DNA from: Gammaproteobacteria bacterium
GTDB lineage: Bacteria; Pseudomonadota; Gammaproteobacteria; Eutrophobiales; Eutrophobiaceae
Reading direction: 5' to 3'
Length of the DNA stretch: 64,000 nt
NCBI GenBank assembly: GCA_965243115.1
Contig: CBDEUD010000003.1
Coordinates: forward strand, 2,474,200 to 2,538,199
Shown here: positions 9,508 through 56,954 of the stretch, piece by piece
Layout of the letters: each line of letters opens with the position of its first letter
Numbering within the stretch: the first letter of the stretch is position 1
Translations under genes and position numbers: made by a program
The notes under the pieces: generated by a model
The model's input: the letters and a program-made list of their open reading frames with translations, nothing else
Databases searched by the model: none
What the model was told of the DNA's origin: nothing

Positions 9508-9654
9508 ATTCAAACTCCTGACAGGGTTAAGCCTCCGCACATCCCGCATTACACCCGGCCGTCTACCGTCGAGCCGGCCAGGACCCCGAAATGCGTTCTG
9601 TAATGTGCGTGTGTTCTAACAACAGTTCTCTTGCTATAACCGGATAATTGGAGT

Positions 9655-22194: not shown

Positions 22195-22293
22195 AAGTTT
22201 CTCCTGTGGATGCAGTATCAGAGACAGCCTGTCAAGATCATATCACGCCGGAGTTGTGGATGACCGGCCGGGAGGATTTGTTGAGTGTATAAA

Positions 22294-24627: not shown

Positions 24628-24651
24628 ATCTGTCCCCGTTATTCACCATTG

Positions 24652-37333: not shown

Positions 37334-37410
37334 CGGGGTGTAGCTCAGCCTGGTAGAGCACTGCCTTCGGGAGGCAGGGGCCGGAGGTTCAAATCCTCTC
37401 ACCCCGACCA
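37334..37410 (+). tRNA. tRNA-Pro (anticodon CGG)
   Basis: Cloverleaf folded by hand: 7-bp acceptor CGGGGUG/CACCCCG, D-arm GCUC/GAGC, anticodon stem CUGCC/GGCAG with loop UUCGGGA, T-arm GGAGG-UUCAAAU-CCUCU, discriminator A and encoded CCA. Strong similarity to E. coli tRNA-Pro. Confidence 0.85.
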
Positions 37411-37480: not shown

Positions 37481-38020
37481 CTATGACGAATCGGCCACGA
37501 GCTGCTGTTCAACGACAGTCATCCGCTCACGAATAGCCGCCTGGCCCTCCTGCAGACCGTTAAACTGCTGCGTCAGGTCGCTGCGGACTTCGTTGGTCTG
37601 CTGCGTCAGGTCGCTGCGGACTTCGTTGATCTGCTGTGTCAGGTCGCTGCGGACTTCGTTGATCTGCTGTGTCAGGTCGCTGCGGACTTCGTTGATCTGC
37701 TGTGTCAGGTCGCTACGGACTTCGTTGATCTGCTGTGTCAGGTCGCTGCGGACCTGGTTGATCTGCTTTATCAGGTCGCTGCGGAGTTCACGGATCTCAC
37801 CACGGATTTCGCGCATCTCACCACGAACTTCGCTGAGCTGTTGAGTCAGGTCGCTACGGACCCCGCTGATTTGCTGGGAAAGGAAAGTGAGGTAAGCAAA
37901 CATCATGGTAACCACGATGGCCGCGCCCCACTTCAGTACGCGCACTTCCCCGGACAGACGCCCCAACTCACGTGCGCCCTCGAGGTCCTGCACTGTCATA
38001 ACCGTGTTTTCCGTATTCAT
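37481..38020 (-). CDS. Membrane-anchored protein with about 10 tandem 11-aa repeats (SDLTQQINEVR; 33-bp minisatellite), paralog A1
   Basis: The N-terminus MNTENTVMTVQDLEGARELGRLSGEVRVLKWGAAIVVTMMFAYLTFLSQQ is identical to the paralog at 39309-39773. One TM helix, then 11-residue repeats, and a conserved C-terminus ...QFNGLQEGQAAIRERMTVVEQ. The ORF track extends it to 38086. Confidence 0.65.
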   Translation of the reverse strand: MNTENTVMTVQDLEGARELGRLSGEVRVLKWGAAIVVTMMFAYLTFLSQQISGVRSDLTQQLSEVRGEMREIRGEIRELRSDLIKQINQVRSDLTQQINEVRSDLTQQINEVRSDLTQQINEVRSDLTQQINEVRSDLTQQTNEVRSDLTQQFNGLQEGQAAIRERMTVVEQQLVADSS

Positions 38021-38143
38021 AATACTTCTCCTTCTGACGTTTCCATCACAGGTCGTATGGCCAGGACAGGGTATGATGCCCGACAACGCCTGTCAAGGGG
38101 CCCTGAGGGGTCAGACCAGTTCAGATCGCCACGAATTTAGAGG

Positions 38144-39256
38144 TCAGGACCACATCTCACCAGCTTTCTTGCGGGAATCAAGCTCATCCAAAGCCAGTTC
38201 GGCGCGCATGGCCTCGGTTGCCGTCGCCTTGGCATCCTCCAGCGGGATGCCCGTCGCATCGGCAACGCGCGGGTAGCAGTTAAATGCTGCAATGACCGCC
38301 GCGGCATCAACCATCGCCGCCTCACCCATTGCTCTTATGATTTGTTGCCGGACTGTTGCCGTGCGCGCTGCATCATCTGCGCAGACAGCCTCGACAAAGT
38401 CATTGAGAAGCTCTCCCCGGGGCAGACCGCTATCACCCGAGCCTTTACCGATTGCATCCTCAAGCGCGTACTTGTCGCCGGTATGTTTGCCGCTCAAACT
38501 GAGCCGCATTGCATGGCTGGCAGTTCAATAAAAACAGTCGAGATAGGCCGAGGTGCGAGTCGCAATGAATTCCATCTGCGCCCGTGAGATTGCTCGCTCG
38601 ACGCCCTCGAGTTCAACTCTTAACGGATTACCCAGGTAAAGCTGGTTCAACAGCGGCCAAAACCGGTTTGCTTCGTCGGGTACCAGGGTCAGCGCGCGTC
38701 GAATATAGGCGGCGGGGCCTGTCTCATAAAAATCACCGAGTTCGTGGCCGGCATCTTCCGGAGCAACCGTCGGCGCCCATCCCGGCCCTGTCTTGGCACC
38801 GGCCGGCCGCCTGCGCGGCGGTATGCCTTGCTCTCCTGTTGCGGACAACGCCAAAGGCGGGAGCCCGATACCGCGCATGAAGGTGTCCGCACCAGTGACA
38901 ATGGTAACGAGGCTCAGCAGCTCGATGAATTCGTCTTCAGCGATACCGGCAGCGATGGTTGAATCGTACCAGCTCTCAGTGATGCGGCCGGAGTCGGTAA
39001 CTATCCGGTGCACCGCCTCGACCCAGGCATCGGGGAGCGCGCCGAGGTGCTCATGATCACCCTGTACGGTATAGGGCGACAAGGCTTCCTTGCGCCGTTT
39101 GCAGAGTTCGCATTGCCATGCGTTGCGGGCTTCGTTTGCAATTGCAAGACGTTGTTCGCCGCTCAGCCAGGCGCCGGTCTGAGCCACTTCCGACCAGGCC
39201 TGGGTCAAGGCCGATTTGAGATTATCCCGTACGGTGAGTGGTGATGTATCTATCAT
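38144..39256 (-). CDS. Candidate selenoprotein of the AhpD/carboxymuconolactone-decarboxylase (CMD) family; in-frame TGA at 38525-38527 read as Sec (two ORF-track ORFs joined)
   Basis: ORFs 38525-39256 and 38144-38509 are in the same frame, separated only by one TGA. Readthrough gives ...AYLDCFY-U-TASHAM..., a C-x-x-U-x-x-x-H motif matching the AhpD C-x-x-C-x-x-x-H active site. A hairpin lies 16 nt downstream of the UGA. Confidence 0.6.
38488..38508 (-). ncRNA. SECIS-like hairpin (mRNA: UGCGGCUCA-GUU-UGAGCGGCA)
   Basis: 9-bp stem with one G.G mismatch and an apical loop containing GU. Starts 17 nt after the in-frame UGA, within the typical bacterial SECIS distance window. Confidence 0.45.
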
Positions 39257-39308: not shown

Positions 39309-39773
39309 CTATGACGAATCGGCCACGAGCCGTTGTTCAACGACAGTCATCCGCTCACGAATAGCCGCCTGGCCCTCCTGCAGACCGTTAAATTGGTGCG
39401 TCAGGTCGCTACGGACTTCGTTGGTCTGTTGCGTCAGGTCGCTACGGACTTCGTTGATCTGCTGTGTCAGGTCGCTACGGACTTGGTCAATTCGCTGTGT
39501 CAGGTCGCTATGGACTTGGTCGATTCGCTGTGTCAGGTCGCTATGGACTTGGTCGATTCGCTGTGTCAGGTCGCTATGGACTTGGTCGATCTGCTGTGTC
39601 AGGTCGCTACGGACCCCGCTGATTTGCTGGGAAAGGAAAGTGAGGTACGCAAACATCATGGTAACCACGATGGCCGCGCCCCACTTGAGTACGCGCACTT
39701 CCCCGGACAGACGCCCCAACTCACGTGCGCCTTCGAGGTCCTGCACTGTCATAACCGTGTTTTCCGTATTCAC
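39309..39773 (-). CDS. Membrane-anchored protein with about 8 tandem 11-aa repeats (SDLTQ[QR]IDQV[HR]), paralog A2
   Basis: Same N- and C-termini as A1, with a different repeat number and sequence. Its upstream about 80 bp is near-identical to the A1 upstream region. Confidence 0.65.
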   Translation of the reverse strand: MNTENTVMTVQDLEGARELGRLSGEVRVLKWGAAIVVTMMFAYLTFLSQQISGVRSDLTQQIDQVHSDLTQRIDQVHSDLTQRIDQVHSDLTQRIDQVRSDLTQQINEVRSDLTQQTNEVRSDLTHQFNGLQEGQAAIRERMTVVEQRLVADSS

Positions 39774-40041
39774 AAATATTCTCCTTCTGACGTTTCCATC
39801 ACAGGTCGTATGGCAAGGTCAGGGTATGATGCCTGACAATGCCTGTCAAGAATAATTGCCGCCCCCGCCAATAGGGTACCGGGTATTGTTGACGGAGGCC
39901 GGCGCAACCACTGACAGGAGTTGCTACTGGAGACAAATAATTGATAAAAATCATAATGATATAATAAATATTCAACATGTCTTCTAGATATATGATAAAA
40001 TCGGTGGTCGTTGATACTCAGCCATTGACAACCCCCATTCC

Positions 40042-41097
40042 ATGAATATCGCCGAAGCACTCCCGCCGTTTCCGGAAGGGTGGTATTTCATCGCCGACCG
40101 AAAAACCGTTCTCAAGAAAAAACTCACCCGGAAAACCTGGATGGGTGAGGAGATCATCGCCTGGTGTGACGCGGAAGGCCGGATCTGCGTGGCCGATGCG
40201 GTATGCCCGCACATGGGTTCCAGCCTGGGTCCGGAGGTGGGGGCCCGGGTACGCGACGGTTGCCTGGTTTGCCCCTTTCACGGATTTGAGTACGATGCAA
40301 GCGGCCAGTGCGTTGCCACCCCGAATGCCCCCGCGCCCAAATCAGCCAGGTTGAAAACGTACGAAACAAGAGAAATACTCGGTCTGGTGTTTGCCTGGTG
40401 GGGGAGCGGCGGACGGCTGCCGCAATGGCAGCTGCCGGAACAGCCGCACACCGGCCCGGACTGGAGCGATCTGGCGCTGGGCTTCTTCAGCTTCCCCGGG
40501 CATCCCCAGGAAACTTCTGAAAACTCCGTGGATCTGGCGCACCTGCGTTATATACACGGCTACGACAACGTACACCCGGTCGGCGATGTGTCGGTTAACG
40601 GCGCCCACCTTGTGTCCCGTTTCGACTTCAGGCGCAACCGGAAATTTGCCGGGTTGATTGACAACATCTACGATGTATCAGCCGTTACACATCTTTACGG
40701 CGTAGGCTACTCCTATGTTGAAATTCACGAGAAAACCATCGGTATGGATGCCAGATTATGGGTACTCTCAACACCCATAGACGGTACACATATTGAACTT
40801 GTGCTGGTGAGCCAGGTCAGGGAACTGCGCAAACCGAAACGGCCCATCGTGGGTTTGCGCTTTATCCCGGTGCATCTGCGCCACAGGTTACTGAACCGCA
40901 TTATACTGCGGGCGCAGATACAGGATGTCCGGCAGGACGTGATTATCTGGGGGAAAAAACAATATCGGCCACGCCCCCGCCTGAGTCAGGCGGATGGCGA
41001 GGTAATGACATACCGGCACTATTGCCGCCAGTTCTATCCGGAAACTTATCCGGAGACGGGCCGTGATGAGTTCCAGCTGAGTTCCGTTTCAGGTTAG
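40042..41097 (+). CDS. Rieske [2Fe-2S] non-heme-iron oxygenase (KshA/Neverland/SdmA-like)
   Basis: Rieske motif CPHMG...(17)...CPFHG and mononuclear-iron motif DLAHLRYIH (DxxHxxxxH). AT-rich promoter-like region upstream (39900-40020). Confidence 0.8.
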   Translation: MNIAEALPPFPEGWYFIADRKTVLKKKLTRKTWMGEEIIAWCDAEGRICVADAVCPHMGSSLGPEVGARVRDGCLVCPFHGFEYDASGQCVATPNAPAPKSARLKTYETREILGLVFAWWGSGGRLPQWQLPEQPHTGPDWSDLALGFFSFPGHPQETSENSVDLAHLRYIHGYDNVHPVGDVSVNGAHLVSRFDFRRNRKFAGLIDNIYDVSAVTHLYGVGYSYVEIHEKTIGMDARLWVLSTPIDGTHIELVLVSQVRELRKPKRPIVGLRFIPVHLRHRLLNRIILRAQIQDVRQDVIIWGKKQYRPRPRLSQADGEVMTYRHYCRQFYPETYPETGRDEFQLSSVSG

Positions 41098-41194
41098 TCC
41101 GCGCAACGCATACGTTATATTACATTAACACGAGTTTTTTGGGACAGTATTGGAGTCTCATATATATCTGAACCCCTGCATGGGAGAATACGGC

Positions 41195-42229
41195 ATGAAA
41201 CTAGGCAAACTACCCAATGCTCTGAAACGTGCGTACCGGGGGTCAGATGTCACCCGTCGAATAAAACATTTCGATGGCTGGAGCGGTCGAGCGGCGCAGG
41301 ATGGCGTCGGAGCGGACAGCTACGACCACAGCGAAACGGTGAAAGAATACTATGAGCTTTGCAACGAGTTCATGGTGTTCGGTTGGAATGAATCCCTGCA
41401 TTTTGCTCCCTTGACGCCCAATGAGACTCTGGAGGACTCCATCATCCGGCATCAGCGGTTGATGATCGCCAACCTGGAGCTGCAACAGGGCATGACAGTT
41501 GTTGATATCGGCTGTGGGATAGGCGGCCCGATGCGCCGCATCGTGCGTGAGTCCGGTGTCCGGGTTGTCGGGGTCAACAACAATGAGGTCCAGATGGAAA
41601 AGGCAAAAATGCTGAATATCGAGGCCGGGGTCGACCACATGGTTGAGTACGTTGCGTGCAGCTTTATGGACATGAGTGTCATCGGAGACAACACTTTCGA
41701 CGCAGGTTATGCAATCGAGTCGACGTGCCATGCGCCGGACAAGGCAGGCGCATTCGCGGAGATATTCCGCGTGCTGAAACCCGGGGCCCTGTTCTGGGGT
41801 CAGGAAATGTGCATGACGGACAAGTTCAATCCGAATGACGCAAGCCACCGGGCCATCCAGCAGGAACTTATGCACTATATTGCGCTGAATGAAATTGCGA
41901 CGCCGGGGGAAGTGAACCAAACGCTTGAAGCGGCGGGCTTCAGCGTCCTCAAAGGGATGGACCTGGGCGTCAGTGAGGATCAATCCACACCCTGGTACCA
42001 ACCCATGGAGACTCAGCATGGAACCCTGGACAAAGCCGTGCGTAGAATTCCATGGGGCCGCAGGGCGCTCATCGTGGCATTGAAGCTGGCCGAAACGGTC
42101 GGACTGTTCCCGAAGGGATCCACGGAAGTAGTCCGGCTCATGGACCGCACGGCACAGGCTTATGTCGCGGGCGGCAGAGCAGCCATATTCACGCCGTTGT
42201 ACTGTTTCCTGGCTCGCAAACCCCTTTAG
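41195..42229 (+). CDS. Sterol 24-C-methyltransferase (ERG6/SMT family)
   Basis: Collinear with yeast ERG6 across the protein: YYELCNEFMVFGWNESLHF (SMT motif I, YEYGWGxSFHF), VVDIGCGIGGP (SAM motif), YAIESTCHAP, VLKPGALF and the C-terminal GGRAAIFTPLYCFLARKP. SD gggagaa before the ATG at 41195. Confidence 0.85.
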   Translation: MKLGKLPNALKRAYRGSDVTRRIKHFDGWSGRAAQDGVGADSYDHSETVKEYYELCNEFMVFGWNESLHFAPLTPNETLEDSIIRHQRLMIANLELQQGMTVVDIGCGIGGPMRRIVRESGVRVVGVNNNEVQMEKAKMLNIEAGVDHMVEYVACSFMDMSVIGDNTFDAGYAIESTCHAPDKAGAFAEIFRVLKPGALFWGQEMCMTDKFNPNDASHRAIQQELMHYIALNEIATPGEVNQTLEAAGFSVLKGMDLGVSEDQSTPWYQPMETQHGTLDKAVRRIPWGRRALIVALKLAETVGLFPKGSTEVVRLMDRTAQAYVAGGRAAIFTPLYCFLARKPL

Positions 42230-42501
42230 ACCCCGATAGGGCCGGTTGGCCCTATACATGACGCCCGGTAGTTTCGGCTGCTATCTCCCTGACTGCACGT
42301 TGCGTAGAGGGGGATGCCGGATAACTGACCCGACGCCATGAGTCCAAAGCACTTGGCTTGATTGAAATTCATTCCATCGAGTGGTATAATGCGCGCGGTC
42401 AACACCTGTTTTTTTATGGCTTCCAATACCCTTGAGATTGAGTTCGGCGCAGGCAAAGGGGCGTTTTCCGATTCCCGGTTTATTAAGTCTAACGCACTGA
42501 A

Positions 42502-44496
42502 ATGATAAGTTTAGTTGACGAACTGGTACTGTTCCTCATCAACGAAGAAAGCGGTTACTTTCACCAGGTTTCAGGCTGGAAACTGCACTGCGCCCTCGCC
42601 GGCGCCGTGCTTGCGGACCTGTCAATGATCTCACGTATCGACACAGACCTGGAGTCTCTTTTTGTTGTCGACTCCACGGAAACAGGCGACCCCGTCCTGG
42701 ATTCCGCCTTGAGGAAAATCGGGGAAGAACCAACGCAACGAAGTACCCAATTCTGGATTGAACGGCTGAGCCCGCGCGCGGAATCGATCATCGATACGAC
42801 TCTGGAACGACTGGCGGAGCGTGGAATAGTGACGGAACATCAAGGCGGGTTTTGGACTATCTCGCGTACTACCTGGCAGACCCATTCCTATTCTTCTGAC
42901 GATGGAGATGAGACGGAGTTCGTCAAGACGCGACTTAGTAAGGTCATTTTCGATAACGAAATCCCTGACCCGAGAGATATTTTCCTCATCTCTCTCATCC
43001 ACACGTGCGATGTCTTTCGCTTTGTCTTCACCCTCGACGAAGCGGCGGAGGAACGTATTGCGGCCATTTCCAGCATGGACGTTCTGGGCCGCGCCATCGC
43101 GGAAGCCATCAGCCAGACCCTTGCAGGTCCGGCGCTGCAACGTGCGATTAAGTCCCGACCGATTCCGACCGTCCCGATACGCGACCTGCTGTTCAGCCCG
43201 CATATCCGCACCGGCAACATATCTGCGCTGTTTGCCGGGCTTGCTGAAAAACACGGGCCCGTGTTCAAGATTAAAGCGCCGTTTATGAAGGAAGACATGG
43301 TAATTCTCGCCGGCCTCGAGGCAAACAAATGGACGCATCGCTCCGGCCGCAACTACCTGAGAGCCAAGGACTATCTTGAAGGTTTCGTGAAGGTCTACGG
43401 CGCCGGGCGGTTGCTGCCCGCGATGGACGGCGCCGACCATTTCCGTTTGCGCAAAACCTATGGTTCGATGAATTCGCGCAAAAAACTTGAAAACCGCCTG
43501 GATGAACTATACGGGCCCGCCCGCGGCTACCTGGCGGGTTGGCAGGTCGGCGACGTCCTGACGGCGGTGGCGACTTTCCCCGAATTGATCAACTCGCAAT
43601 TCTCACCGATCAACATCGGCATCAACACCCAGGACTGTATCAAGGAAGTGATCGAATTCAAGAAGCGGGCGCTCGCCATTCACCTGTTGCGGATGCTGCC
43701 GGAATTCATGCTGTATACCCCGGGCATGAAACGCAGGAAGAAGCACTTTGCCAGGCTGGTCGAGCGGGTGCAGGCTGTGCATACACCAGCCCAGCGGGCG
43801 GGCTGTCCCCGGAATCTTGCGGACGATTTACTGAGCCTGCACGCAAGCGACCCGCAGTTTTTGCCGGAAACGGATTTGCCTTTTGCTTTTGTGTCATCGC
43901 TGCTTGCCGCCTTTTACCTCGGCAGCGCGTTGAGCTTCGCGGTGTACGCCATGGTGTCGCAGCCGGCCCTGTATCGCAGGATACAGGCGGAAGCCGCAAC
44001 GTTCTTTGCCAACGGCGAACCGGTAGGCGAGGAAGTCCAGGAATTCAATTTAGATGTCACCCACCGCCTCATCATGGAGTGCCAGCGTATGTACCCGGTC
44101 GTGCCGATGCAGGTCAGGAACGTAATGAATGCCTTCACGCTCGAAGGATATTCACCTCCTGTAGGAACGCGGCTTTTCATTGCCCAGACAGCCACGCATT
44201 ATATGGATGACGTCTTCCCGGACCCCTTTTCGTTCGATATCGACCGCTACCTCCCGGAACGCAAGGAACAAGTCGGCCACGGCTACGCGCCGTACGGGCT
44301 GGGCACCCACACTTGCCTCGGTCAGAACTGGGTAGAGTTGCAACTGGCGCTTAACCTGCTGCTGATTGCGCACTATTTCAACCTTGAGTTGTCCCCCGAA
44401 AACTACCAGCTGCGTTTCAACCCGATCCCGTCGCTGGCGCCGAGGAAGAGTCTCAAGTTCGTCGTCGCAGAAAAGCGGCGCGAACTGCCTGCCTGA
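42502..44496 (+). CDS. Fusion protein: N-terminal GPP34/GOLPH3-like domain (about 220 aa) + C-terminal cytochrome P450
   Basis: N-terminus MISLVDELVLFLINEESGYF...WKLHCALAGAVLADL matches the GPP34 family pattern (ELLLLALDDE...ALAGAVLAEL). C-terminus has P450 EXXR (ECQR), PERF-like PDPFSFDIDRY and heme ligand YGLGTHTCLG. It is a single 664-aa ORF. Confidence 0.75.
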   Translation: MISLVDELVLFLINEESGYFHQVSGWKLHCALAGAVLADLSMISRIDTDLESLFVVDSTETGDPVLDSALRKIGEEPTQRSTQFWIERLSPRAESIIDTTLERLAERGIVTEHQGGFWTISRTTWQTHSYSSDDGDETEFVKTRLSKVIFDNEIPDPRDIFLISLIHTCDVFRFVFTLDEAAEERIAAISSMDVLGRAIAEAISQTLAGPALQRAIKSRPIPTVPIRDLLFSPHIRTGNISALFAGLAEKHGPVFKIKAPFMKEDMVILAGLEANKWTHRSGRNYLRAKDYLEGFVKVYGAGRLLPAMDGADHFRLRKTYGSMNSRKKLENRLDELYGPARGYLAGWQVGDVLTAVATFPELINSQFSPINIGINTQDCIKEVIEFKKRALAIHLLRMLPEFMLYTPGMKRRKKHFARLVERVQAVHTPAQRAGCPRNLADDLLSLHASDPQFLPETDLPFAFVSSLLAAFYLGSALSFAVYAMVSQPALYRRIQAEAATFFANGEPVGEEVQEFNLDVTHRLIMECQRMYPVVPMQVRNVMNAFTLEGYSPPVGTRLFIAQTATHYMDDVFPDPFSFDIDRYLPERKEQVGHGYAPYGLGTHTCLGQNWVELQLALNLLLIAHYFNLELSPENYQLRFNPIPSLAPRKSLKFVVAEKRRELPA

Positions 44497-44580
44497 GACG
44501 GCAGGGATTCCCTGTCAGCATTTCCCGGGCGCCGGCAGGCAGCGCGGCTGCATTGGTTCCCGCTGGAGAAGCCAAACGCA

Positions 44581-47500
44581 TCAGGTCCCGCGCAGCCGGT
44601 TGACGCGCAGGTAGATTGCCAACAGGGCAGGCACACAGATCATGAGAATCGCTGTCGTAATCAGGATGCCGACCCCAAGCGTGGCCGCGAAGGGGGCCAG
44701 GAACTGGGCCTGGATGGCCCGTTCGAGAATGAGAGGCGTGAAGCCGAGAAAGGTGGTCACGGAGGTCAGCATGATGGGTCGAAAACGTTCCTTTGCGCCA
44801 TCGATAATCGCGCTCCGTGGGGGAGCGCCTTCGCTGAGTCGCTGATCGACGAAATCTATCATTACCAGGGAGTCGTTCACGACGACTCCGCTCAAGCCGA
44901 AGAAGCCGATCATGGACGTCGCGCTCACGGGCACACCCAGCACCCAATGCCCCAGGATCGTGCCGATGATGCCAAACGGAATGATGGCCATGACAATGAT
45001 CGGCTTGCTGTAGGAGCGCAGGGGAATGGCCAGCATGGCAAACATAAACAGCAACACGAGTATAAAACTGCGGAACAGCGCGCCCAGCGATTCAATCTGC
45101 TGTTGCTGTTCACCCCCGTATATGTAGGTCAGGCCGGGATTGGCGGCTGACAGGTCAGCGAGGATGGAATCCGCCAGGATGCTGTTTGCTTCATTAGCGG
45201 AAATCACAGCCGGGTCCACTTCAGCGATCACGGTGACGACGCGCTGGCCGTCCCTGCGCCGAATTTCCGGAGGGGAAAAACCCGTGTTCAAGCGCGCGAC
45301 CTGGGTAAGCGGCACTTCCGCCCCGCCCGGGGTGCGGATCAGGTATGCCTCAACGTCGGTCATGGCGTCGCGTTCATCCTTGGGCAGGCGGACATAGACC
45401 CGGACTTCTTCCCGGTCTCGCTGCACCCGCAGGGCTTCGGCGCCGAAGAATGCCGCGCGTGCTTGCACGGCCAGGTCTTCCAGCGTGAGTCCGAGTGTGC
45501 GCGCCTCCTCCCTCAACTCCAGTTGTATCTCCCTGACACCCGGCGCGTGGTCGGAGCGTATGTCATACACGCCCTCCAGTCCGCGCAATTCGCTGACCAC
45601 CGAACCTGCTATTTGGACGAGACGGTCCGGGTCCGGATGAGAAAGCACCGCCTCAACGGGACTGCCGAAGTCGACGACATCTCCGCTGATGGCAATGCTG
45701 CGCACGTAGGGCAGGATACCCACCTCCTCCCTCCAGGCTTGCGCGACATCTACCGTGGAGATATCTCGTTGCTGCGCGCTCACGAGCTTGAATTCGATGC
45801 CGGCAACGTTGGCTTCAGGGTTCAGCGTGAGTTTCGGTAACAATCCCCCACCCTCAACGCGAGGTTCCCGGCCAACGGTGACGACGACTCCCGAGAGCAG
45901 GGGGGGCGCTCCATCAGCCTGGGTCCCAGAGAACCGGGCAACGACGCGTCGCCCCGCCTTCTCCAGTTCCCTGGCCACCTCGTGCGTCCTGCTCGCGGTA
46001 GTCCCATCCGGCATCTCAAGGCTCGCGTTCACGAAGTCGCCTTCGATCACGTCGGCGTAAGTAGTCATCACGATACCTGCCGGCAACAGGGAGATGCTCA
46101 GGACGAGCATGCCGACCGCGACCGCCATCACCACTGCCGGCTGTTGTGTTGCAAATCGGAGCGATCGGTCCAGAGGTCCTTCCACGAACCTGTTCAATAC
46201 GCGATCAACGTAGCGCTGGGTGCGCCAGAAAAACCGCTCAACCGGACTGGTGGGCGTCCAGTCCGGACCGTGCAGGTGAGAGAGGTGGTTGGGAAGTATG
46301 AAGAAAGCATCGACGAGGGAGATCAACAGCATGGCGATGACGACTATCGGCAGCGCCTTCCATATTTCACCGATGCCCCCGGGCACGAAGAGTACGGGCG
46401 TAAACGCGGCGATGGACGTGAGCACGGCAAACGTCAGGGGCTTCTTGATCCGCCGAACGCCGCGGATTGCGGCCGCGACTCCCGGTATGCCCTGCTGCCG
46501 CTCGTGATGGATGTGCTCGGCCACGACGATGGCGTCGTCGACAATGATACCGATGGCAAGGACGAACACGAACAGGGAGACGTTGTTGAGTGAGAGGTCA
46601 AATGCCAGCATGACGGCCAGGGCGCCGATCCCCGCAGTGGCGAGTCCGACCGCGACCCATAACGCCAGCCGTATTTCGAGGAACAGCGCCAGGGCGATAA
46701 GGACGAGCATGAGCCCCAACGAGCCGTTCTTAAGCAACATGTCGACCCGCTCCGAATAAGTCTGGGTATCGTCGTTCCAGATAGAGATTTCCACGCCTTC
46801 GGGCAGGGATGGCGCAATGACGTTTGCCACGTGTTCGTGCACCGCCGCGGCGACAGCCATCACCGGTTCACCTTCCGCCCGGAAGACCTCGACAAAGGCT
46901 GCCGGCTTACCGTCGTAGCGCACAATCAGGTCATTGTCGCGAAAGCCATCGTGCACTTCTGCAATATCGCTGAGGCGCACCACGGTCCCGTCATTGCGAC
47001 TGAGAACGACAAGATTCTCAAAGTCCTGCTGATCATATCGCCGGCCGAGGGTGCGCACGCGCACTTCGGTATCCCGCGTCTTGATACTGCCGGCCGACAG
47101 GTCGAGGGAACCGCGACGCACCGCGTCGGCGACATCATCCAGTGTGAGTCCCAGGGCGCGCAGACGGCGCAGCGGTACTTCAATCGATATCTCGTAGTCC
47201 GACGTGCCGCTCGTCTCGACGTTCGATACTGCGGGCAGCGCAGCAAGATCATCCTCAATCTGGTAAGCCAGTTCCTTCAGCGATCGCCTTGGGATATCGC
47301 CATACACGACAAGACGGATGATGCTCGTGCGGGTGGACAATTTGGTAATCTCGGGACGCTCGGCCGCGCCGGGAAAGGACTGGATACGGCTGACTGCTGA
47401 CTCTACCTGGTCCAATGCCTGGTCAATATCCGTACCCGACCTCATTTCAACGCTGATGGATGCTATCCCGGGGGCAGCCACCGAGCGAATCGATTTAACG

Positions 47501-47760
47501 TCGTCCAGGGCTTCGACCTGTTCCTCAATCTTGACGACAATCGAATCTTCCACCTCCTCCGGGCTGGCGCCCGGATAGGCCATCGACACTTCAATCATGT
47601 TGAAGGGGATAGGCGGCCAGGCCTCCCGCTCAAGGCCGGTCAGCGATACCAGCCCCGCGGCGATGATGGCCAACATCAACAGGTTGGCGGCAACGCCATT
47701 GCCGGCCATGTAGGCGATCGGTCCCGGCCGTTCGCCGCCGATAAGATCCCTGGAATTCAC
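44581..47760 (-). CDS. Efflux RND transporter permease subunit
   Basis: 1059 aa, 12 TM with two large periplasmic loops, GIIVDDAIVVAEHI motif. ATGA overlap with the upstream adaptor gene. Confidence 0.9.
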   Translation of the reverse strand: MNSRDLIGGERPGPIAYMAGNGVAANLLMLAIIAAGLVSLTGLEREAWPPIPFNMIEVSMAYPGASPEEVEDSIVVKIEEQVEALDDVKSIRSVAAPGIASISVEMRSGTDIDQALDQVESAVSRIQSFPGAAERPEITKLSTRTSIIRLVVYGDIPRRSLKELAYQIEDDLAALPAVSNVETSGTSDYEISIEVPLRRLRALGLTLDDVADAVRRGSLDLSAGSIKTRDTEVRVRTLGRRYDQQDFENLVVLSRNDGTVVRLSDIAEVHDGFRDNDLIVRYDGKPAAFVEVFRAEGEPVMAVAAAVHEHVANVIAPSLPEGVEISIWNDDTQTYSERVDMLLKNGSLGLMLVLIALALFLEIRLALWVAVGLATAGIGALAVMLAFDLSLNNVSLFVFVLAIGIIVDDAIVVAEHIHHERQQGIPGVAAAIRGVRRIKKPLTFAVLTSIAAFTPVLFVPGGIGEIWKALPIVVIAMLLISLVDAFFILPNHLSHLHGPDWTPTSPVERFFWRTQRYVDRVLNRFVEGPLDRSLRFATQQPAVVMAVAVGMLVLSISLLPAGIVMTTYADVIEGDFVNASLEMPDGTTASRTHEVARELEKAGRRVVARFSGTQADGAPPLLSGVVVTVGREPRVEGGGLLPKLTLNPEANVAGIEFKLVSAQQRDISTVDVAQAWREEVGILPYVRSIAISGDVVDFGSPVEAVLSHPDPDRLVQIAGSVVSELRGLEGVYDIRSDHAPGVREIQLELREEARTLGLTLEDLAVQARAAFFGAEALRVQRDREEVRVYVRLPKDERDAMTDVEAYLIRTPGGAEVPLTQVARLNTGFSPPEIRRRDGQRVVTVIAEVDPAVISANEANSILADSILADLSAANPGLTYIYGGEQQQQIESLGALFRSFILVLLFMFAMLAIPLRSYSKPIIVMAIIPFGIIGTILGHWVLGVPVSATSMIGFFGLSGVVVNDSLVMIDFVDQRLSEGAPPRSAIIDGAKERFRPIMLTSVTTFLGFTPLILERAIQAQFLAPFAATLGVGILITTAILMICVPALLAIYLRVNRLRGT

Positions 47761-48971
47761 TTTACCGGGCCAGCCTTGGTGCTGACCAGCATGTCTTCCA
47801 CGGCAAACTGGATACCGCCGGTGATTACCGCCTGCCCGCTTTCCAGGCCGCCGGTCACGAATACCTCGTCATCGGCGCGCTGCAGCACCTGTACCGGGAC
47901 GATACCTACCCTGCCGCCGGGGTTCACCACCCACAGTTCATTGCCGGGCTGCAATGCGGCGCGCGGCGCCCGGAAGTAATTCTCCGGCGCAGCTCCCGTA
48001 ATCTCCACCTCCACGAACTCACCCAGCAACAGCGGCGGACCGGCGCCGGCCGCGGCGGAAACGCCAACCGGGATGCCGGCGCTGAACGGATCCGGCACGC
48101 GTACCACCACGTCTATGGTACGCGTCAGTTCATCTACGGAGGTCTCGCCCCGGTCAACATAGCCTTTCCAGGCATATTTCCCTGCGCCGTAACGGACCGC
48201 CACCAGCGCCTGCACCCGCTGCTCCCCGTCGCCCGCCTGAAGTTCCCACAAGCCGGGGATCAGGGCCGCATCGCTGTCGGACAGGGGCACGACCACTTCC
48301 ACGGCAGCGGATGCAAACAGCCGGCCGACGGTCTGGCCCGCCATCACGATCTGCCCGGCGTCCACGGATTCCTCGCGCACATGGCCGTCGAAGGGCGCAG
48401 CCACCCGGGTCCTGGACAGCGCCAGCCTGGCGTCGGCCAGCAGGGCTTCGGCGCGTTTCAGTTCGGCGCGCGCGGCTTCCAGTTGCGGTTCTCTCAGGGT
48501 AAGGGGACTGACACCGGCCTGACCGGCCCCATCCCCCTGCCGGCCGGAGTAACGTTCGTACTCGGCGCGGGCGATGGCCGCCTGTTCCTGTTCCTCCAGC
48601 AAGGCCACCTTGCGCGCCGCGAGATTGGCCTCCGCTTCCTGTACCCGGTACAGGTAGTCCGCTTCTTCGATACGGAACAGCGTCTGGCCCGCGTGTACCC
48701 GTCCTCCGCTCTGGAACCCGGCGTCCACCCAGACGATCCTGCCGCCGACCTGCGGCGCGACATCGACCTCGGCGCCCGCCCTGACCGTGCCGGCGCCATA
48801 TACCGGGATGGCGCCTGAACCTGCCAGCACCGTTCCGGTCTGCGCATACGGGATTTGCGGTGGCGGTTCGACGCGCTCCGGTTCCGGCGCACGTGAAACC
48901 AGGAAAGACGCCAAAGCCACGGAACCGGCGATAATGACAACGGCGATGAGGAAACTGGATATGCGGGACAT
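47757..48971 (-). CDS. Efflux RND transporter periplasmic adaptor (membrane fusion protein)
   Basis: N-terminal TM anchor, coiled-coil hairpin, and lipoyl/beta-barrel domains. Position between the OMF and the RND permease. Confidence 0.85.
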   Translation of the reverse strand: MSRISSFLIAVVIIAGSVALASFLVSRAPEPERVEPPPQIPYAQTGTVLAGSGAIPVYGAGTVRAGAEVDVAPQVGGRIVWVDAGFQSGGRVHAGQTLFRIEEADYLYRVQEAEANLAARKVALLEEQEQAAIARAEYERYSGRQGDGAGQAGVSPLTLREPQLEAARAELKRAEALLADARLALSRTRVAAPFDGHVREESVDAGQIVMAGQTVGRLFASAAVEVVVPLSDSDAALIPGLWELQAGDGEQRVQALVAVRYGAGKYAWKGYVDRGETSVDELTRTIDVVVRVPDPFSAGIPVGVSAAAGAGPPLLLGEFVEVEITGAAPENYFRAPRAALQPGNELWVVNPGGRVGIVPVQVLQRADDEVFVTGGLESGQAVITGGIQFAVEDMLVSTKAGPVK

Positions 48972-48977
48972 GTGGGT

Positions 48978-50558
48978 CTACTCCGTGGTGTTGGCAAGCA
49001 TACGCTCAGGTTCTGTATGGGTTGCGTTACTCTGCTTGGCAGCACCCCGGTCCCGGGCGGTCCACGCGCCTCCCAGGGCGCGGTGCAACGCCAGACGGGC
49101 GTAACCCAGGTCGCGCTCCGCCGCCGCCAGGCCGGATTGCGCACCCAGCAGGTTTTGCGCCGCGGTCAGGAAAGCTTCATATTCGCCCACGCCGGAAACA
49201 TAGCGCTGCTCCTGCAACGCGTTTTCAGCCTCGGCCTCTTCTGCCAGCGAGGCCAGCAGGGAATGGCGGCGGTGGCTGGCCTCCAGCCGCGCCAGGGCGG
49301 CCTCAACCTCCTTGACCGCAGTAACGACGCTGCGCCCGTAGGCGGCGGCGGCCTCGTCCAGCCTGGCCTCGGCGAGTTCGACATTGCTGCGCAACCGTGC
49401 TCCCTGGAATACCGGACCCAGCAGGTTGAAGCTCAGGTTGCGGAACCATTGGTCCGGGTCGAACCATTCACCGCCTTCCGTGCTCTGCAATCCGATGGAA
49501 CCGTACAGGGACAGGCTCGGAAACATATCGGCGCGGCGGGCGCCGACCGTGTAGCGCGCCGCTTGCATCCGCTTTCTTGCCGCGCTGACATCCGGACGCT
49601 GGACCAGCAGGTCGGCCGGAATACCGGCCGGTACCGGTTCCAAGGCAGCGGCAGGAGTCAGGGTATCGGGCAGCATGTCCTTGAGATCCGAACGGTAACC
49701 ACCCAGGAGCACCCAGAGTCTGCCCTGCGCATCCGCCAGCAGCGCTTCAATCTGCGGCAGCTCGGCTTGCGCGTTACGCAGGTTCTGGCGGGCAGAGTAG
49801 AGAGCGAGCGTGTCGATCCGGCCCCGGTCGTAACGAAATTCCGCCAGCGACTCGCGTTGCTTGAAAATTTCCACGTTTTCGCCTGCCAGCTTCTGCTGCC
49901 GGCGCAAATCGACGATTTCCAGGTAGGTCCGCACGGTTTCCGCCAGCACCCCCATGCGGGCAGTCAGGAAATCCGCTTCGGAAGCCGACCGCTCCGCCCC
50001 CGCGGCAAGCGCATCGTTGCGGTTGCGGCCCCAGAAATCGAGTTCGTAGGAAAAGTCCACTCCCAGGGTGTAGGTAGTCAGGTCAAGCCGGTCCGGCAGT
50101 TCGATGCCGAAGTCGCTGTACACGTCGGGACCCAGCCCCACCTCATCCAGTTGCGCGGCGATGCCGGCGTTGGTCGGTACATCAATGTCGGTGATGTCAG
50201 CCGAAGGCTGCAGCAAGGGAAACGCCGGGGCCTTGACGATGCGTTCCCGCGCCCTGGCCTGGTCGACACGGGCAACCGCTTCGGCCAGGTCGAAGTTCGA
50301 TTCCAGCGCCGTCTCGATCACACGGTCGAGAACCGGATCGGCGAACGACTTCCACCACTCCAGCGGCTCGTATGCCCCGCCGGTTTCACTTCCGGCGTAC
50401 GCGTCAGGCAGGTCCGCAAACGTTTCGTCAGCTTCGGGAGCCAGGTCGATGAGGTTCGTTTTCAGGGCGCAGGCGGAAAAGAGGCAGCAGGCGACGACAG
50501 CAAACAGCATCACCGGAACCCGCCTGGATAAGGTCGACCTGACTGACACCTGTCTCAT
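48978..50558 (-). CDS. Efflux outer-membrane factor lipoprotein (NodT/OprM family)
   Basis: Lipobox LFSAC, two TolC-like repeats, 526 aa. First gene of an OMF-MFP-RND operon (CzcCBA-like order). Confidence 0.85.
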   Translation of the reverse strand: MRQVSVRSTLSRRVPVMLFAVVACCLFSACALKTNLIDLAPEADETFADLPDAYAGSETGGAYEPLEWWKSFADPVLDRVIETALESNFDLAEAVARVDQARARERIVKAPAFPLLQPSADITDIDVPTNAGIAAQLDEVGLGPDVYSDFGIELPDRLDLTTYTLGVDFSYELDFWGRNRNDALAAGAERSASEADFLTARMGVLAETVRTYLEIVDLRRQQKLAGENVEIFKQRESLAEFRYDRGRIDTLALYSARQNLRNAQAELPQIEALLADAQGRLWVLLGGYRSDLKDMLPDTLTPAAALEPVPAGIPADLLVQRPDVSAARKRMQAARYTVGARRADMFPSLSLYGSIGLQSTEGGEWFDPDQWFRNLSFNLLGPVFQGARLRSNVELAEARLDEAAAAYGRSVVTAVKEVEAALARLEASHRRHSLLASLAEEAEAENALQEQRYVSGVGEYEAFLTAAQNLLGAQSGLAAAERDLGYARLALHRALGGAWTARDRGAAKQSNATHTEPERMLANTTE

Positions 50559-50641
50559 CTTGTTTAGCCCTGTCGGTTAGACTCCCCTGGAAGGGTGCCG
50601 ATTATACCATACTCCTGATTTTCAAGTAGAATGTCGGGAAT

Positions 50642-50699
50642 AATGGGGTCAGGTCGCACATTGCACATATCAATGTGCAATGTGCGACCTGACCCCATT
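50642..50699. repeat. REP-like palindromic element, family 1, copy 2 (short 6-bp spacer)
   Basis: AATGGGGTCAGGTCGCACATTGCACA-tatcaa-TGTGCAATGTGCGACCTGACCCCATT. Confidence 0.8.
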
Positions 50700-50716
50700 A
50701 TTCAACAATAACAACC

Positions 50717-51460
50717 ATGAGTCGCAAACCCGTCATAGCCGTCACGGCCGATCACATCATGGTCCGGGACATCATGCCGGCCGCGGTGGTTTATAACGTT
50801 TACACCGATGCCGTTATCCACGCCGCGGACGCCCTGCCCTGGATCGTGCCGCCGGTTGCCGGGTCCCTGGATATCGATGCCCTGCTCGGCAGGGTGGACG
50901 GCATCATCTTTACCGGCGCGCGTTCCAATATCCAGCCGCACCGTTACCGGGGTGAAGCCGCGCCGGAAAATACCGTGCAGGACGCGCAGCGGGACGCAAC
51001 CACTCTACCGTTAATTCCGAGAGTGATCGGCGCGGGCATTCCCATGCTATGCATCTGCCGCGGTATCCAGGAACTCAACGTGGCCCTGGGCGGCACCCTG
51101 CACCAGGACGTACCCGGCCTGCCGGACAAACTGGACCATTTCCCACCCGAGGACTGGAGCATCGAACAGCGTTTTGCCCATTCCCACGAGGTTGTGCTTG
51201 AAGCCGGCGGCGACCTGGCAAAATTGACCGCAATGAAGACAGTCAGGGTCAACAGCGTGCATGAACAGGGTATCGACCGGCTGGCCGACGGCCTGACCAT
51301 CGAGGCCCGCGCCCCGGACGGGCTCATTGAAGCAGTCCGGGTCAGGGACAGCAAGGCGTTTGCCGCCGGCGTGCAGTGGCATCCCGAGTGGGACTGGCGC
51401 AACCATTCCCTGAACGCAAAGATCTGGGCGGTTTTCGGCGCGGCCTGCCGGGGAGAATAA
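50717..51460 (+). CDS. Gamma-glutamyl-gamma-aminobutyrate hydrolase family protein (class I glutamine amidotransferase-like, peptidase C26)
   Basis: ICRGIQELNVALGGTL (catalytic Cys), HxE near the C-terminus (WHPEW). PuuD-like. Confidence 0.8.
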   Translation: MSRKPVIAVTADHIMVRDIMPAAVVYNVYTDAVIHAADALPWIVPPVAGSLDIDALLGRVDGIIFTGARSNIQPHRYRGEAAPENTVQDAQRDATTLPLIPRVIGAGIPMLCICRGIQELNVALGGTLHQDVPGLPDKLDHFPPEDWSIEQRFAHSHEVVLEAGGDLAKLTAMKTVRVNSVHEQGIDRLADGLTIEARAPDGLIEAVRVRDSKAFAAGVQWHPEWDWRNHSLNAKIWAVFGAACRGE

Positions 51461-54523: not shown

Positions 54524-55969
54524 ATGAACCTGGACCATTACCAGACAGAAGGATTATACGATGAACTGTTGACGCCGCGGTTACAGGCACGGGACGGCCT
54601 CGGCAGTATGCTCGATACGCTTGAACGGCTGAGCTACAAGGAACTGGACAGGCGCAGGCGGGATGCCGAACACGCCATCTCGACCATGGGCATTACCTTT
54701 ACCATCTATAGTGAGGCCGGCAATATCGACAGGGAGTGGCCTTATGACGTGATCCCCCGGATCATCCTCGATAATGAATGGCAACGGATAGAAAAAGGCC
54801 TGGTCCAGCGCCTGCGAGCGCTCAACCTGTTTGTCTCGGATGTCTATAACGAACAAAAGATCGTAAAGGACGGAGTATTTCCCGCATCCATCCTCAAATC
54901 TTCAAAGAATTATCGCCGTGAATGCGAGGGGATGAAGCCGCCCCTGGGGGTATGGGCGCATATCTGCGGCACCGACCTGGTGCGGGACGACGACGGCGTC
55001 ATGTACGTGCTGGAAGATAACCTGCGCATCCCCTCCGGGGTGTCCTACATGCTGGAGAACCGCAGGTTGACCAAGCTCACATTTCCGGAACTGTTCGAGG
55101 ATTATTCCATCGGGCACATGGACGGTTACACCATGCAGTTGTTTGAAACCCTGGGTTCCGTCTCGCCGCGTCCGCTGGATTACCCCGAAGTCGCCGTGCT
55201 GACACCTGGTATTTATAATTCGGCCTATTTTGAGCATTCATTCCTGGCCCGCCAACTGGGCGCCGAACTGGTCGAAGGCACGGACCTGGTGGTTGCCGAA
55301 GACGACTGCGTGTACATGAAAACCATTTCCGGCCTGGACCGTGTCGATGTGGTATACCGGCGGGTCGACGACCTGTTCCTTGACCCGGAGGTGTTTCGCA
55401 AGGACTCCCTGCTGGGAGTGGCCGGCATCATGCGCGCCTGGAGAAAAGGCAAGGTCGGGCTTGCCAATGCCCCGGGGGTGGGTGTCGCGGACGATAAACT
55501 GGTTTATACCTATGTGCCGGAAATGATCCGATATTACCTGGGTGAAGAACCGTTGCTGCCGAACGTTCCAAGTTACCGTTGCAGTGACGACAAGCAGCGG
55601 CGCCACGTCCTGGCCAACCTGGACCAGCTGGTGCTCAAACCGGTCAACGAATCCGGCGGTTACGGCATCGTCATCGGACCGGGAGCAAGCAGGCGCGAGC
55701 TGGCGCAGGCGGCGGACCGGGTCAAGGCAGACCCCCGGAATTACATCGCCCAGCCGGTCGTCAACTTGTCCACGGTACCCACTTTATGCGGCAAGCGCAT
55801 CGAACCCCGCCACGTCGACCTCAGGCCGTTTATCCTGCAGGGAGGTCATTCCTACGTGACTGCCGGCGGGCTCACCCGGGTGGCCCTGGTACGCGGCTCC
55901 CTGGTGGTAAACTCATCACAGGGAGGCGGCAGCAAGGACACCTGGGTAATCGCCGGAAGGGGGCAGTGA
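54524..55969 (+). CDS. Circularly permuted type-2 ATP-grasp protein (DUF404/DUF407)
   Basis: 481 aa. Family resemblance, and the canonical coupling to a downstream alpha-E domain gene with a TGATG overlap. Confidence 0.7.
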   Translation: MNLDHYQTEGLYDELLTPRLQARDGLGSMLDTLERLSYKELDRRRRDAEHAISTMGITFTIYSEAGNIDREWPYDVIPRIILDNEWQRIEKGLVQRLRALNLFVSDVYNEQKIVKDGVFPASILKSSKNYRRECEGMKPPLGVWAHICGTDLVRDDDGVMYVLEDNLRIPSGVSYMLENRRLTKLTFPELFEDYSIGHMDGYTMQLFETLGSVSPRPLDYPEVAVLTPGIYNSAYFEHSFLARQLGAELVEGTDLVVAEDDCVYMKTISGLDRVDVVYRRVDDLFLDPEVFRKDSLLGVAGIMRAWRKGKVGLANAPGVGVADDKLVYTYVPEMIRYYLGEEPLLPNVPSYRCSDDKQRRHVLANLDQLVLKPVNESGGYGIVIGPGASRRELAQAADRVKADPRNYIAQPVVNLSTVPTLCGKRIEPRHVDLRPFILQGGHSYVTAGGLTRVALVRGSLVVNSSQGGGSKDTWVIAGRGQ

Positions 55970-56898: not shown

Positions 56899-56954
56899 CT
56901 GCAGAGGGGCTAGGGGTTAGGGAATATAGATTCTAGCCCCTAGTCCCTAGCCCC

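Follow-up and report, generated by a model that had tools for sequence, protein, structure and literature searches.

Does an ERG6-like gene in a gammaproteobacterial chromosome encode a sterol C-24 methyltransferase, and if not, what might its product do? The question is raised by a 64,000-nucleotide stretch of contig CBDEUD010000003.1 (assembly GCA_965243115.1, positions 2,474,200 to 2,538,199), hereafter called the window, in which a first-pass annotation had assigned positions 41195-42229 to an enzyme of this kind. Judged by its sequence, the gene is a member of the sterol methyltransferase (SMT)/ERG6 superfamily, and it falls in a distinct bacterial paralogue clade that is set apart from the canonical SMTs. 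We refer to this clade as SMTb and to the canonical bacterial SMTs as SMTa, both names being coined in this analysis. We give about an even chance to the reading that the product is a sterol-tailoring methyltransferase of non-canonical specificity, which would belong, along with two oxygenases and an exporter, to a cassette that has spread horizontally among sponge-associated bacteria.

Family membership and the sterol pocket

The gene lies in an open reading frame at 41150-42229 (+). It is intact, and its ATG at 41195, with GGGAGAA upstream, gives a product of 344 residues. Because of this ribosome-binding site, and because 344 residues is the length of almost all homologues, we take 41195 to be the right start; the boundaries 41195-42229 (stop codon included) assigned earlier therefore stand. 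On the evidence of Pfam, BLASTP, an alignment and a tree, the predicted product is an SMT-family, S-adenosylmethionine (SAM)-dependent C-methyltransferase of the SMTb clade. BLASTP aligned it with yeast ERG6 at about 36% identity over 326 residues (E 8e-72), far beyond chance; the ERG6 sequence used as reference is identical to NP_013706.1. The two proteins are collinear, as the first-pass annotation had held, from YY..GW..HF through DIGCGIGGP to FTPLYCFLARKP.

Membership of the superfamily was judged by the presence of Methyltransf_11 followed by Sterol_MT_C, both above their Pfam gathering scores. In the window protein, a class I methyltransferase domain (Methyltransf_11, 60.4 bits) precedes Sterol_MT_C (E 2.2e-16, 60.1 bits, cut-off 21.7), and there is a weak CMAS overlap. 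Yeast ERG6 and plant SMT1/SMT2 have the same two-domain architecture. The protein also lies within the limits that Brown et al. set for their SMT search (E ≤1e-50, ≥30% identity, full length). An exact look-up found no identical protein in public assemblies, the closest being P0001 at 99% identity, and in the PDB, which holds no solved true SMT, the best matches were MitM and other small-molecule methyltransferases. The top NCBIfam match, sarcosine/dimethylglycine N-methyltransferase, reached 83 bits against a cut-off of 550 and was rejected; no SMT-specific NCBIfam entry matched.

Twenty-five residues are conserved in every SMT with activity, including those of Region I, 84-GWGxxFHF-91 (10.64898/2025.12.19.695621, section 9). 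The window protein keeps 21 of the 25, the deviations being T78N, G86N, F89L and L341M in ERG6 numbering. Its Region I reads GWNESLHF rather than the canonical GWGxxFHF, the differences being G86N and F89L. The first-pass annotation had recognized this motif as GWxxSxHF, and the motif region is indeed present, but the degenerate pattern masks the replacement of G86 and F89. The SAM-binding Region II (DxGxGxxGP) is complete, with D104, G106, G108, G111 and P112 all in place. Also kept are H69 and E175 (ERG6 H90 and E195, the latter in Region III), which are residues of catalytic type, the Region IV glycine G197 (ERG6 G217), and W286 and the C-terminal GG..FTP motif, these last two in ERG6 numbering.

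Beyond GWNESLHF, T78N and L341M, the window protein differs from ERG6, SMT1 and SMT2 by the pocket substitutions Y81M, G218A, T219L, Y223Q and D249I and by a deletion of six residues after W286. In its own numbering, the substituted pocket positions are N57, M60, N65, L68, A198, L199, Q203, I229 and A230. Mutations of yeast ERG6 at Y81, G218, T219 and Y223 alter the number of methyl transfers (10.64898/2025.12.19.695621, Introduction), and residues 81 and 249 lie ≤5 Å from docked 24-methylenecholesterol in published models (10.64898/2025.12.19.695621, section 7). Conservation was scored in an alignment of the 120 best homologues, in which L89 occurs in 120/120 and T78 in 0/120. M81, L219, Q223, I249 and A250 are invariant or nearly so, and no variation is seen in the SAM-binding motif, at H90, E195, D189 and G217, or in the C-terminal motif. 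Two residues of the window protein, N65 (ERG6 G86) and Y228 (G248), are minority states in the clade.

Since SAM Region II, H90, E195, G217, W286 and the C-terminal motif have all been retained, the enzyme is more likely to be active, with a remodelled pocket for its substrate, than decayed, and the 67-72% identity maintained across phyla points to purifying selection on an active enzyme. The window protein is thus likely an active SAM-dependent methyltransferase. A catalytically dead paralogue, or one that simply binds sterol as a regulator, would fit the altered Region I and the lack of activity that clade members showed in published assays (see below). However, the invariance of the SAM-binding and catalytic residues in all 120 homologues, the intact gene with its good ribosome-binding site, and a level of cross-phylum identity typical of catalytic constraint make a pseudo-enzyme barely credible.

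The SMTb clade and published assays

An exhaustive HMMER search of 1.84 billion cluster representatives gave 247 SMT-like clusters at E ≤1e-30, and a neighbour-joining tree was calculated on 294 columns with 200 bootstraps. We defined SMTb by the signature M81, L89, A218, L219, Q223, I249 and A250 (ERG6 numbering) together with a place in the clade that this tree supports at 100%. The window protein carries the whole signature, as M60, L68, A198, L199, Q203, I229 and A230. Among the approximately 100 full-length representatives compared, M81/L89 is confined to the window's family and its nearest outliers (P0140, P0142, and in part P0144), and most other SMT representatives have Y81/F89. L219, Q223, I249 and A250 are likewise not seen in the ∼100 other SMT cluster representatives. 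The deepest SMTb member, P0144, is 41% identical to the window protein.

The distance from the SMTb clade to every canonical SMT is at least 1.05, compared with ∼0.8 between yeast ERG6 and the bacterial canonical SMTs. By identity to ERG6 the proteins form two classes, SMTa at 39-43% and SMTb at 35-35.7%, and the same two classes are present in Supplementary Data 1 of Brown et al. 2023 (PMC10070321). SMTa proteins have 25/25 of the canonical residues, against 21/25 for the window protein, which is 35.6% identical to ERG6 and 39% identical to SMTa. The names used by NCBI parallel the split: canonical bacterial SMTs are called 'sterol 24-C-methyltransferase family protein' and SMTb proteins 'class I SAM-dependent methyltransferase'. 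The phylogenetic check that the first-pass annotation had proposed puts the gene inside the SMT superfamily but outside the canonical SMTs, and the label of ERG6-type C-24 methyltransferase does not survive the fully supported separation, the distance and the residue count.

We scanned genomes for SMTb, taking one genome per species, and obtained 80 loci. Three of the 80 are from Gammaproteobacteria, with 79-87% identity to the window protein. The remaining loci, at 67-72% identity, are from metagenome-assembled genomes (MAGs) of Dehalococcoidia/SAR202, other Chloroflexota, Binatia, Dadabacteria, Acidimicrobiales and Rhodospirillaceae, and a protein search adds members from Nitrospira and Gemmatimonadota. 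Homologues of 67-72% identity span Chloroflexota, Nitrospirota, Dadabacteria, Gemmatimonadota, Binatia, Actinobacteriota and Proteobacteria. Within the gammaproteobacterial sub-branch, to which the window protein belongs, identity is 79-99%. Several of the MAGs with SMTb bear the names of published sponge-microbiome bins. The functional bacterial SMTs of Brown et al. 2023, such as the propylating 'A. aerophoba 10000835 1 of 2' (an SMTa), share this habitat, the bacteria that carry them being uncultured and largely sponge-associated.

Bacterial SMTs had been described as rare in the first-pass annotation. This is not borne out: 7,966 SMT homologues have been found in Joint Genome Institute (JGI) metagenomes, and work published in 2023 demonstrated activity for many SMTs from bacteria (PMC10070321). 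The existence of SMTs in bacteria is established, and the SMTb clade has been sampled before. The supplementary alignment of Brown & Welander 2025, in the part available, contains a 'No activity' block of 11 rows, equal to the 11 inactive SMTs of the text, and the substrates behind this label are desmosterol and 24-methylenecholesterol (10.64898/2025.12.19.695621). Among its rows are 'A. aerophoba ...10000835 2 of 2' and 'Nitrospira coral reef MAG 2 of 2' (10.64898/2025.12.19.695621). The 25-residue segments printed for these two rows are exact substrings of L084-SMTb/P0060 and P0031, respectively, both SMTb members and each 71% identical to the window protein. The window protein differs from these two in belonging to the gammaproteobacterial sub-branch and in having N65 and Y228. 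The block also holds 'P. ficiformis LXNJ01004423' and 'T. swinhoei Chromatiales MAG 2 of 2' (10.64898/2025.12.19.695621); as printed there, both carry the clade signature YDH(T/A)ETV, and both probably belong to SMTb.

A desmosterol assay, which the first-pass annotation had put forward as a way to establish activity, has thus in effect been run on two 71%-identical clade members, both of which appear under 'No activity' (zymosterol and lanosterol were outside the panel). Moreover, all functional SMTs have F89 (10.64898/2025.12.19.695621), which excludes every SMTb from the functional set. The authors note that such inactive SMT homologues may need other substrates (10.64898/2025.12.19.695621).

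It is conceivable that the gene nevertheless encodes a canonical ERG6-type C-24 methyltransferase acting on delta-24 sterols, and that the negative assays of its relatives were technical failures. The 36% identity and full collinearity with ERG6, the Sterol_MT_C domain, the retention of H90, E195 and the SAM motif, and the placement of relatives in sterol clusters (see below) are all what such an enzyme would show. Yet F89 and T78, invariant in functional SMTs, are replaced in 120/120 homologues; Y81, T219, Y223 and D/G249 are replaced as well; and the clade is long-branched and separate. Two verified members were inactive on desmosterol and 24-methylenecholesterol, and SMTb co-resides with a canonical SMT in three phyla, which suggests different jobs. 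We regard the canonical assignment as distinctly unlikely.

A further proposal is that SMTb alkylates a position other than C-24/C-28, for example C-26/C-27 of an alkylated side chain, or the ring, after its partner P450 and Rieske oxygenases (described below) have acted. The symbionts, and not the sponge, would then make or complete the 'unconventional' sponge sterols, examples being aplysterol-type 26-methyl sterols and the precursors of the 26-methylstigmastane biomarker. The clade-invariant replacements at ERG6 sites that affect methyl-transfer number (Y81, G218, T219 and Y223) are consistent with this, and 26-SMTs were named as undiscovered by Brown et al. 2023 (PMC10070321). We give this proposal only a slim chance.

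Partner oxygenases, transporters and sterol clusters

SMTb is flanked in the window by two oxygenase genes, with which it forms a core trio. The upstream gene (40042-41097, +) encodes a Rieske non-haem-iron oxygenase of 351 residues with a KshA_C catalytic domain. These are the Rieske and KshA_C domains of KshA, 3-ketosteroid 9-alpha-hydroxylase, and KshA structures (4qdc, 2zyl) are the best solved relatives, but at E ∼1e-19 and only ∼74 bits the relationship is distant. The downstream gene (42502-44496, +) encodes a protein of 664 residues in which an N-terminal GPP34 domain (E 5e-36) is fused to a C-terminal cytochrome P450 (E 4e-31) with the haem-Cys motif PYGLGTHTCLG. Its architecture is identical to that of GPP34_L of sponge symbionts (PMC11706023). 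For the P450 part, the best solved relatives are CYP51 structures (7jj1, 6mi0, 6mcw; E 5e-20, ∼74 bits), which are again distant. A sigma-70-like promoter match (TTGAAA-17-TATAAT, 11/12, extended -10) lies upstream of the GPP34-P450 gene at 42362-42390 (+), and weaker promoter-like matches lie upstream of the Rieske gene at 39928-40001, all of these being consensus matches only.

We considered whether the two oxygenases could be SdmA (the bacterial sterol C-4 demethylase Rieske oxygenase, 4-beta-methylsterol monooxygenase) and CYP51. The locus would then be a small sterol-synthesis cluster, but the scores led us to reject both identities. NCBIfam SdmA gives 31.8 bits against an equivalog cut-off of 600, and the window Rieske protein has KshA_C, unlike the SdmA of the Nitrospira clusters described below, which has VanA_C and is 23% identical to the cassette Rieske protein. 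The P450 reaches only ∼74 bits as CYP51, and the GPP34-P450s of related loci are 23-25% identical to the genuine CYP51 of the Nitrospira clusters.

Convergent on the cassette is a tripartite efflux system (44581-50558, -), recognized by Pfam as an AcrB-type RND protein (44581-47760, -), a membrane-fusion protein (47757-48971, -) and an outer-membrane factor (48978-50558, -). This pump adjoins the cassette in four related loci (L001, L002, L089 and L090), and in L003 despite a rearrangement, and it may possibly export the cassette product. Identity to L001, the closest species-representative genome, is mosaic over 40042-47760 (GPP34-P450 96%, RND 95%, SMTb 87%, Rieske 83%, IspB 83%), which suggests recombination within the cassette.

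The association extends well beyond the window's lineage. The GPP34-P450 fusion lies ≤1.5 kb from SMTb in 64/86 loci, usually in convergent orientation and co-directionally in the lineage of the window, and it follows the SMT gene of P0144 too. A Rieske/KshA_C oxygenase accompanies SMTb in 59/80 loci. In 56 loci, all from Chloroflexota, an MMPL transporter with a sterol-sensing domain sits directly upstream, a place equivalent to that of the window's pump, and the Chloroflexota cassettes also include an LppX/LprAFG-type lipid-carrier lipoprotein and an MFS transporter. An FAD amine-oxidase-like protein of 462 residues, absent from the window, is present in 36 loci and is more conserved than SMTb (74-87% identity across phyla). 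We also scanned JGI metagenomes reciprocally, with the GPP34-P450 fusion protein, and obtained 15 loci, of which 8 have the MMPL/sterol-sensing-domain transporter and 7 the Rieske oxygenase. All nameable contigs among these 15 are from Aplysina, Petrosia or Sarcotragus metagenomes. Mirror-tree correlations were positive for SMT versus P450 (r=0.55) and SMT versus Rieske (r=0.65; Mantel p=0.001), but we give them little weight because they are inseparable from shared organismal phylogeny.

Some Nitrospira cassettes (L081-L083, 13625-16183, -) add an FAD monooxygenase and a fatty-acid-desaturase-family protein. Elsewhere there are signs of cassette decay or remodelling in relatives: KshA_C fragments of ∼97 residues upstream of SMTb in Nitrospira (L085, 9615-9908; L086, 7687-7986), SMTb remnants of 40 residues beside GPP34-P450 in two sponge-metagenome contigs (L098, 7992-8111; L099, 5713-5832), and, in a 91%-identical relative (L090, 11208-13201), GPP34 and P450 called as two genes, which may reflect a frameshift or an assembly error.

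Linkage to sterol synthesis is direct in two groups. In Nitrospira (two lineages, L081-L086) and in a Binatia MAG (L038), SMTb/GPP34-P450 lies immediately beside a complete sterol cluster comprising SdmB, SdmA, ERG24, CYP51, a squalene monooxygenase-oxidosqualene cyclase (SMO-OSC) fusion and a second, canonical SMT (25/25), such that one gene cluster holds both SMTa and SMTb. Six SMTb contigs of Nitrospira type also agree exactly in length with contigs on which SMO-OSC homologues lie. In the gammaproteobacterial locus L003, a canonical 25/25 SMT (2832-3869, -) is located a few kb from SMTb, between a C26 peptidase gene and the RND outer-membrane factor gene, where the window has a 159-bp gap (50558-50717). 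The recurrence of a canonical SMT beside SMTb in Nitrospira, Binatia and L003 argues that SMTa and SMTb are not redundant and have different jobs.

The same data bear on the idea that SMTb methylates some lipid other than a sterol, for example squalene, a different isoprenoid (linear or cyclic) or an unsaturated acyl chain. The SMT fold is known to accept other substrates: the triterpene methyltransferases of Botryococcus act on squalene and botryococcene. The window has no cyclase within its 64 kb, most carrier loci, those of Chloroflexota, have no sterol-synthesis gene within ±10 kb, the weak CMAS overlap would fit, and the NCBI name for SMTb says only 'class I SAM-dependent methyltransferase'. 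On the other hand, Sterol_MT_C is retained, SMTb lies inside complete sterol clusters of Nitrospira and Binatia, its partners resemble KshA and CYP51, and 56 loci have a neighbouring transporter with a sterol-sensing domain. A non-sterol substrate appears unlikely to us on this balance.

A 2025 paper in Microbiome reports that the GPP34-P450 fusion occurs only in sponge symbionts, which span many phyla, and proposes that it modulates phagocytosis by binding phosphatidylinositol 4-phosphate (PI4P); the paper never mentions a methyltransferase (PMC11706023). That work considers a proposed role of the fusion in phagocytosis, whereas the loci studied here tie it to SMTb, to a KshA-like Rieske oxygenase and to transporters of sterol type. 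Our literature search found no paper containing both 'GPP34' and 'sterol methyltransferase', and the linkage appears not to have been described before. The earlier proposal, in which the fusion binds host PI4P and blocks phagosome maturation (PMC11706023), raises the possibility that SMTb and the oxygenases serve host manipulation, making or altering a lipid signal (e.g. oxysterol-like) and not a bulk membrane sterol. The reported restriction to sponge symbionts, the sponge origin of all nameable metagenome matches and the adjacent export machinery are in keeping with this. However, inspection of the sequence revealed no evident signal peptide at the N-terminus of the fusion, and P450s depend on cytoplasmic redox partners. 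In addition, in a low-confidence alignment with GOLPH3, W81 is kept but R90, R171 and R174 are replaced by A, E and I, so that three of the four residues that we take to be the PI4P contacts of GOLPH3 are not conserved. Host manipulation has no experimental support either, and we consider it a long shot.

We therefore return to sterol tailoring with non-canonical specificity. SMTb would be one module of a horizontally spread lipid-tailoring cassette, its partners being the GPP34-anchored P450 and the KshA-type Rieske oxygenase. The cassette would modify a sterol, as we infer, that comes from the cell's own oxidosqualene-cyclase pathway where there is one (as in the Nitrospira and Binatia relatives) and otherwise from the host. 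SMTb would methylate a substrate other than plain delta-24(25) or delta-24(28) sterols, perhaps an intermediate on which the partner oxygenases have already acted by oxidation or desaturation, or one whose side chain is already alkylated, and the product would be handed over to the adjacent RND/MMPL exporter. GPP34 may serve the simpler role of a peripheral membrane anchor, holding the P450 at the membrane near its substrate. In support of this reading, the closest characterized relatives of the partner enzymes, KshA and CYP51, are both steroid enzymes.

Several points weigh against it. Neither a substrate nor a product has been observed for any member of the SMTb clade. There is no cyclase or other sterol gene in the window, and no gammaproteobacterial SMTb contig was linked to SMO-OSC among the top 120 matches listed (≥72% identity). 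From the GPP34-P450 side, SMTb is adjacent in only 4/15 metagenome loci, with 40-residue remnants in two more, which makes the cassette modular and SMTb a frequent but optional part of it. Inactivity in E. coli lysate assays could mean poor expression or a missing partner instead of a different substrate. One caveat here is that the extent of the 'No activity' label, in the available table as rendered by optical character recognition, was deduced from its row count (11) matching the text.

Other features of the window and implications

The surroundings of the gene bear out its placement, by the first-pass annotation, in a proteobacterial chromosome: rpsB, tsf, dxr, ileS, murJ, proB, obg and ispB, together with rseP, cdsA, pyrH, glnD, mutH and ribF, are ordinary gammaproteobacterial genes, and the same gene order is found in the closest genomic relatives, which are Gammaproteobacteria MAGs. 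A tRNA-Pro(CGG) gene (37334-37410, +) lies between ispB and a block of repeat-protein, selenoprotein and cassette genes. The notion of a genomic island anchored at this tRNA was rejected, since the window contains no repeat of the tRNA 3' end, composition is not anomalous, and synteny is stable in relatives.

Within this block, 38171-39256 (-) is an AhpD-related selenoprotein gene of ∼361 codons (NCBIfam AhpD_rel_CFYUT, 279 bits). The open reading frame ends in ...LDCFY, and in-frame translation past a TGA adds ∼117 residues (CFY-U-TASH...). Because translation runs on in frame for this distance, the TGA at about 38525-38527 is most likely a selenocysteine codon. On either side of this gene are paralogous genes for small proteins (37481-38086, - and 39309-39773, -), which have a shared N-terminus and a single predicted membrane helix. 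After the helix come 6-7 tandem repeats of 11 residues (SDLTQQINEVR), which correspond in the DNA to 33-bp arrays at 37558-37789 and 39400-39614 (92% matches). The proteins give weak, below-threshold Pfam matches of apolipoprotein type.

The window contains a second cluster that looks like a lipid-transport system (20102-25818, -). It consists of genes for an MpaB/Lcp-type oxygenase (24652-25818, -), an MMPL/RND protein with a sterol-sensing domain (22294-24627, -), a LolA-like protein (21373-22194, -) and a DUF1302-like outer-membrane protein (20102-21376, -). A tblastn comparison of this cluster with the MMPL transporter found in Chloroflexota cassettes gave no match at E<1e-3. Elsewhere, ribosomal protein S2 (7993-9549, -) is 518 residues long, with a normal S2 domain at residues 23-238. 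The extension consists of an acidic stretch and then ∼20 repeats of AKTPAKT(T/A)AKAP type that resemble a histone-H1 tail, and at 8-10 kb it coincides with a strong AT skew (-0.28). Upstream of the S2 gene, at 9526-9631, is a t44 RNA leader (Rfam RF00127). Finally, 54524-57710 encodes a circularly permuted ATP-grasp protein, an Alpha-E domain protein and a proteasome-like subunit (Pfam Proteasome, 38.8 bits), an arrangement that resembles an Anbu-type operon.

Steranes with alkylated side chains, such as 24-isopropylcholestane and 26-methylstigmastane, are taken as the oldest chemical traces of animals, a reading that bacterial SMTs already complicate. Were the window protein just one more canonical bacterial SMT, it would be unremarkable within the kind described in 2023. 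SMTb is instead a large, strongly conserved, cross-phylum paralogue clade, whose members fail standard C-24 assays and yet are kept beside steroid-type oxygenases, sterol-type transporters and, in certain phyla, whole sterol pathways. Methylation of sterols at another position or stage, if true, would widen the range of sterol structures in sponges and in the rock record that could come from bacteria. Sterol tailoring would also give a concrete biochemical context to GPP34-P450, a marker of sponge symbiosis that has been interpreted only as a possible phagocytosis effector.

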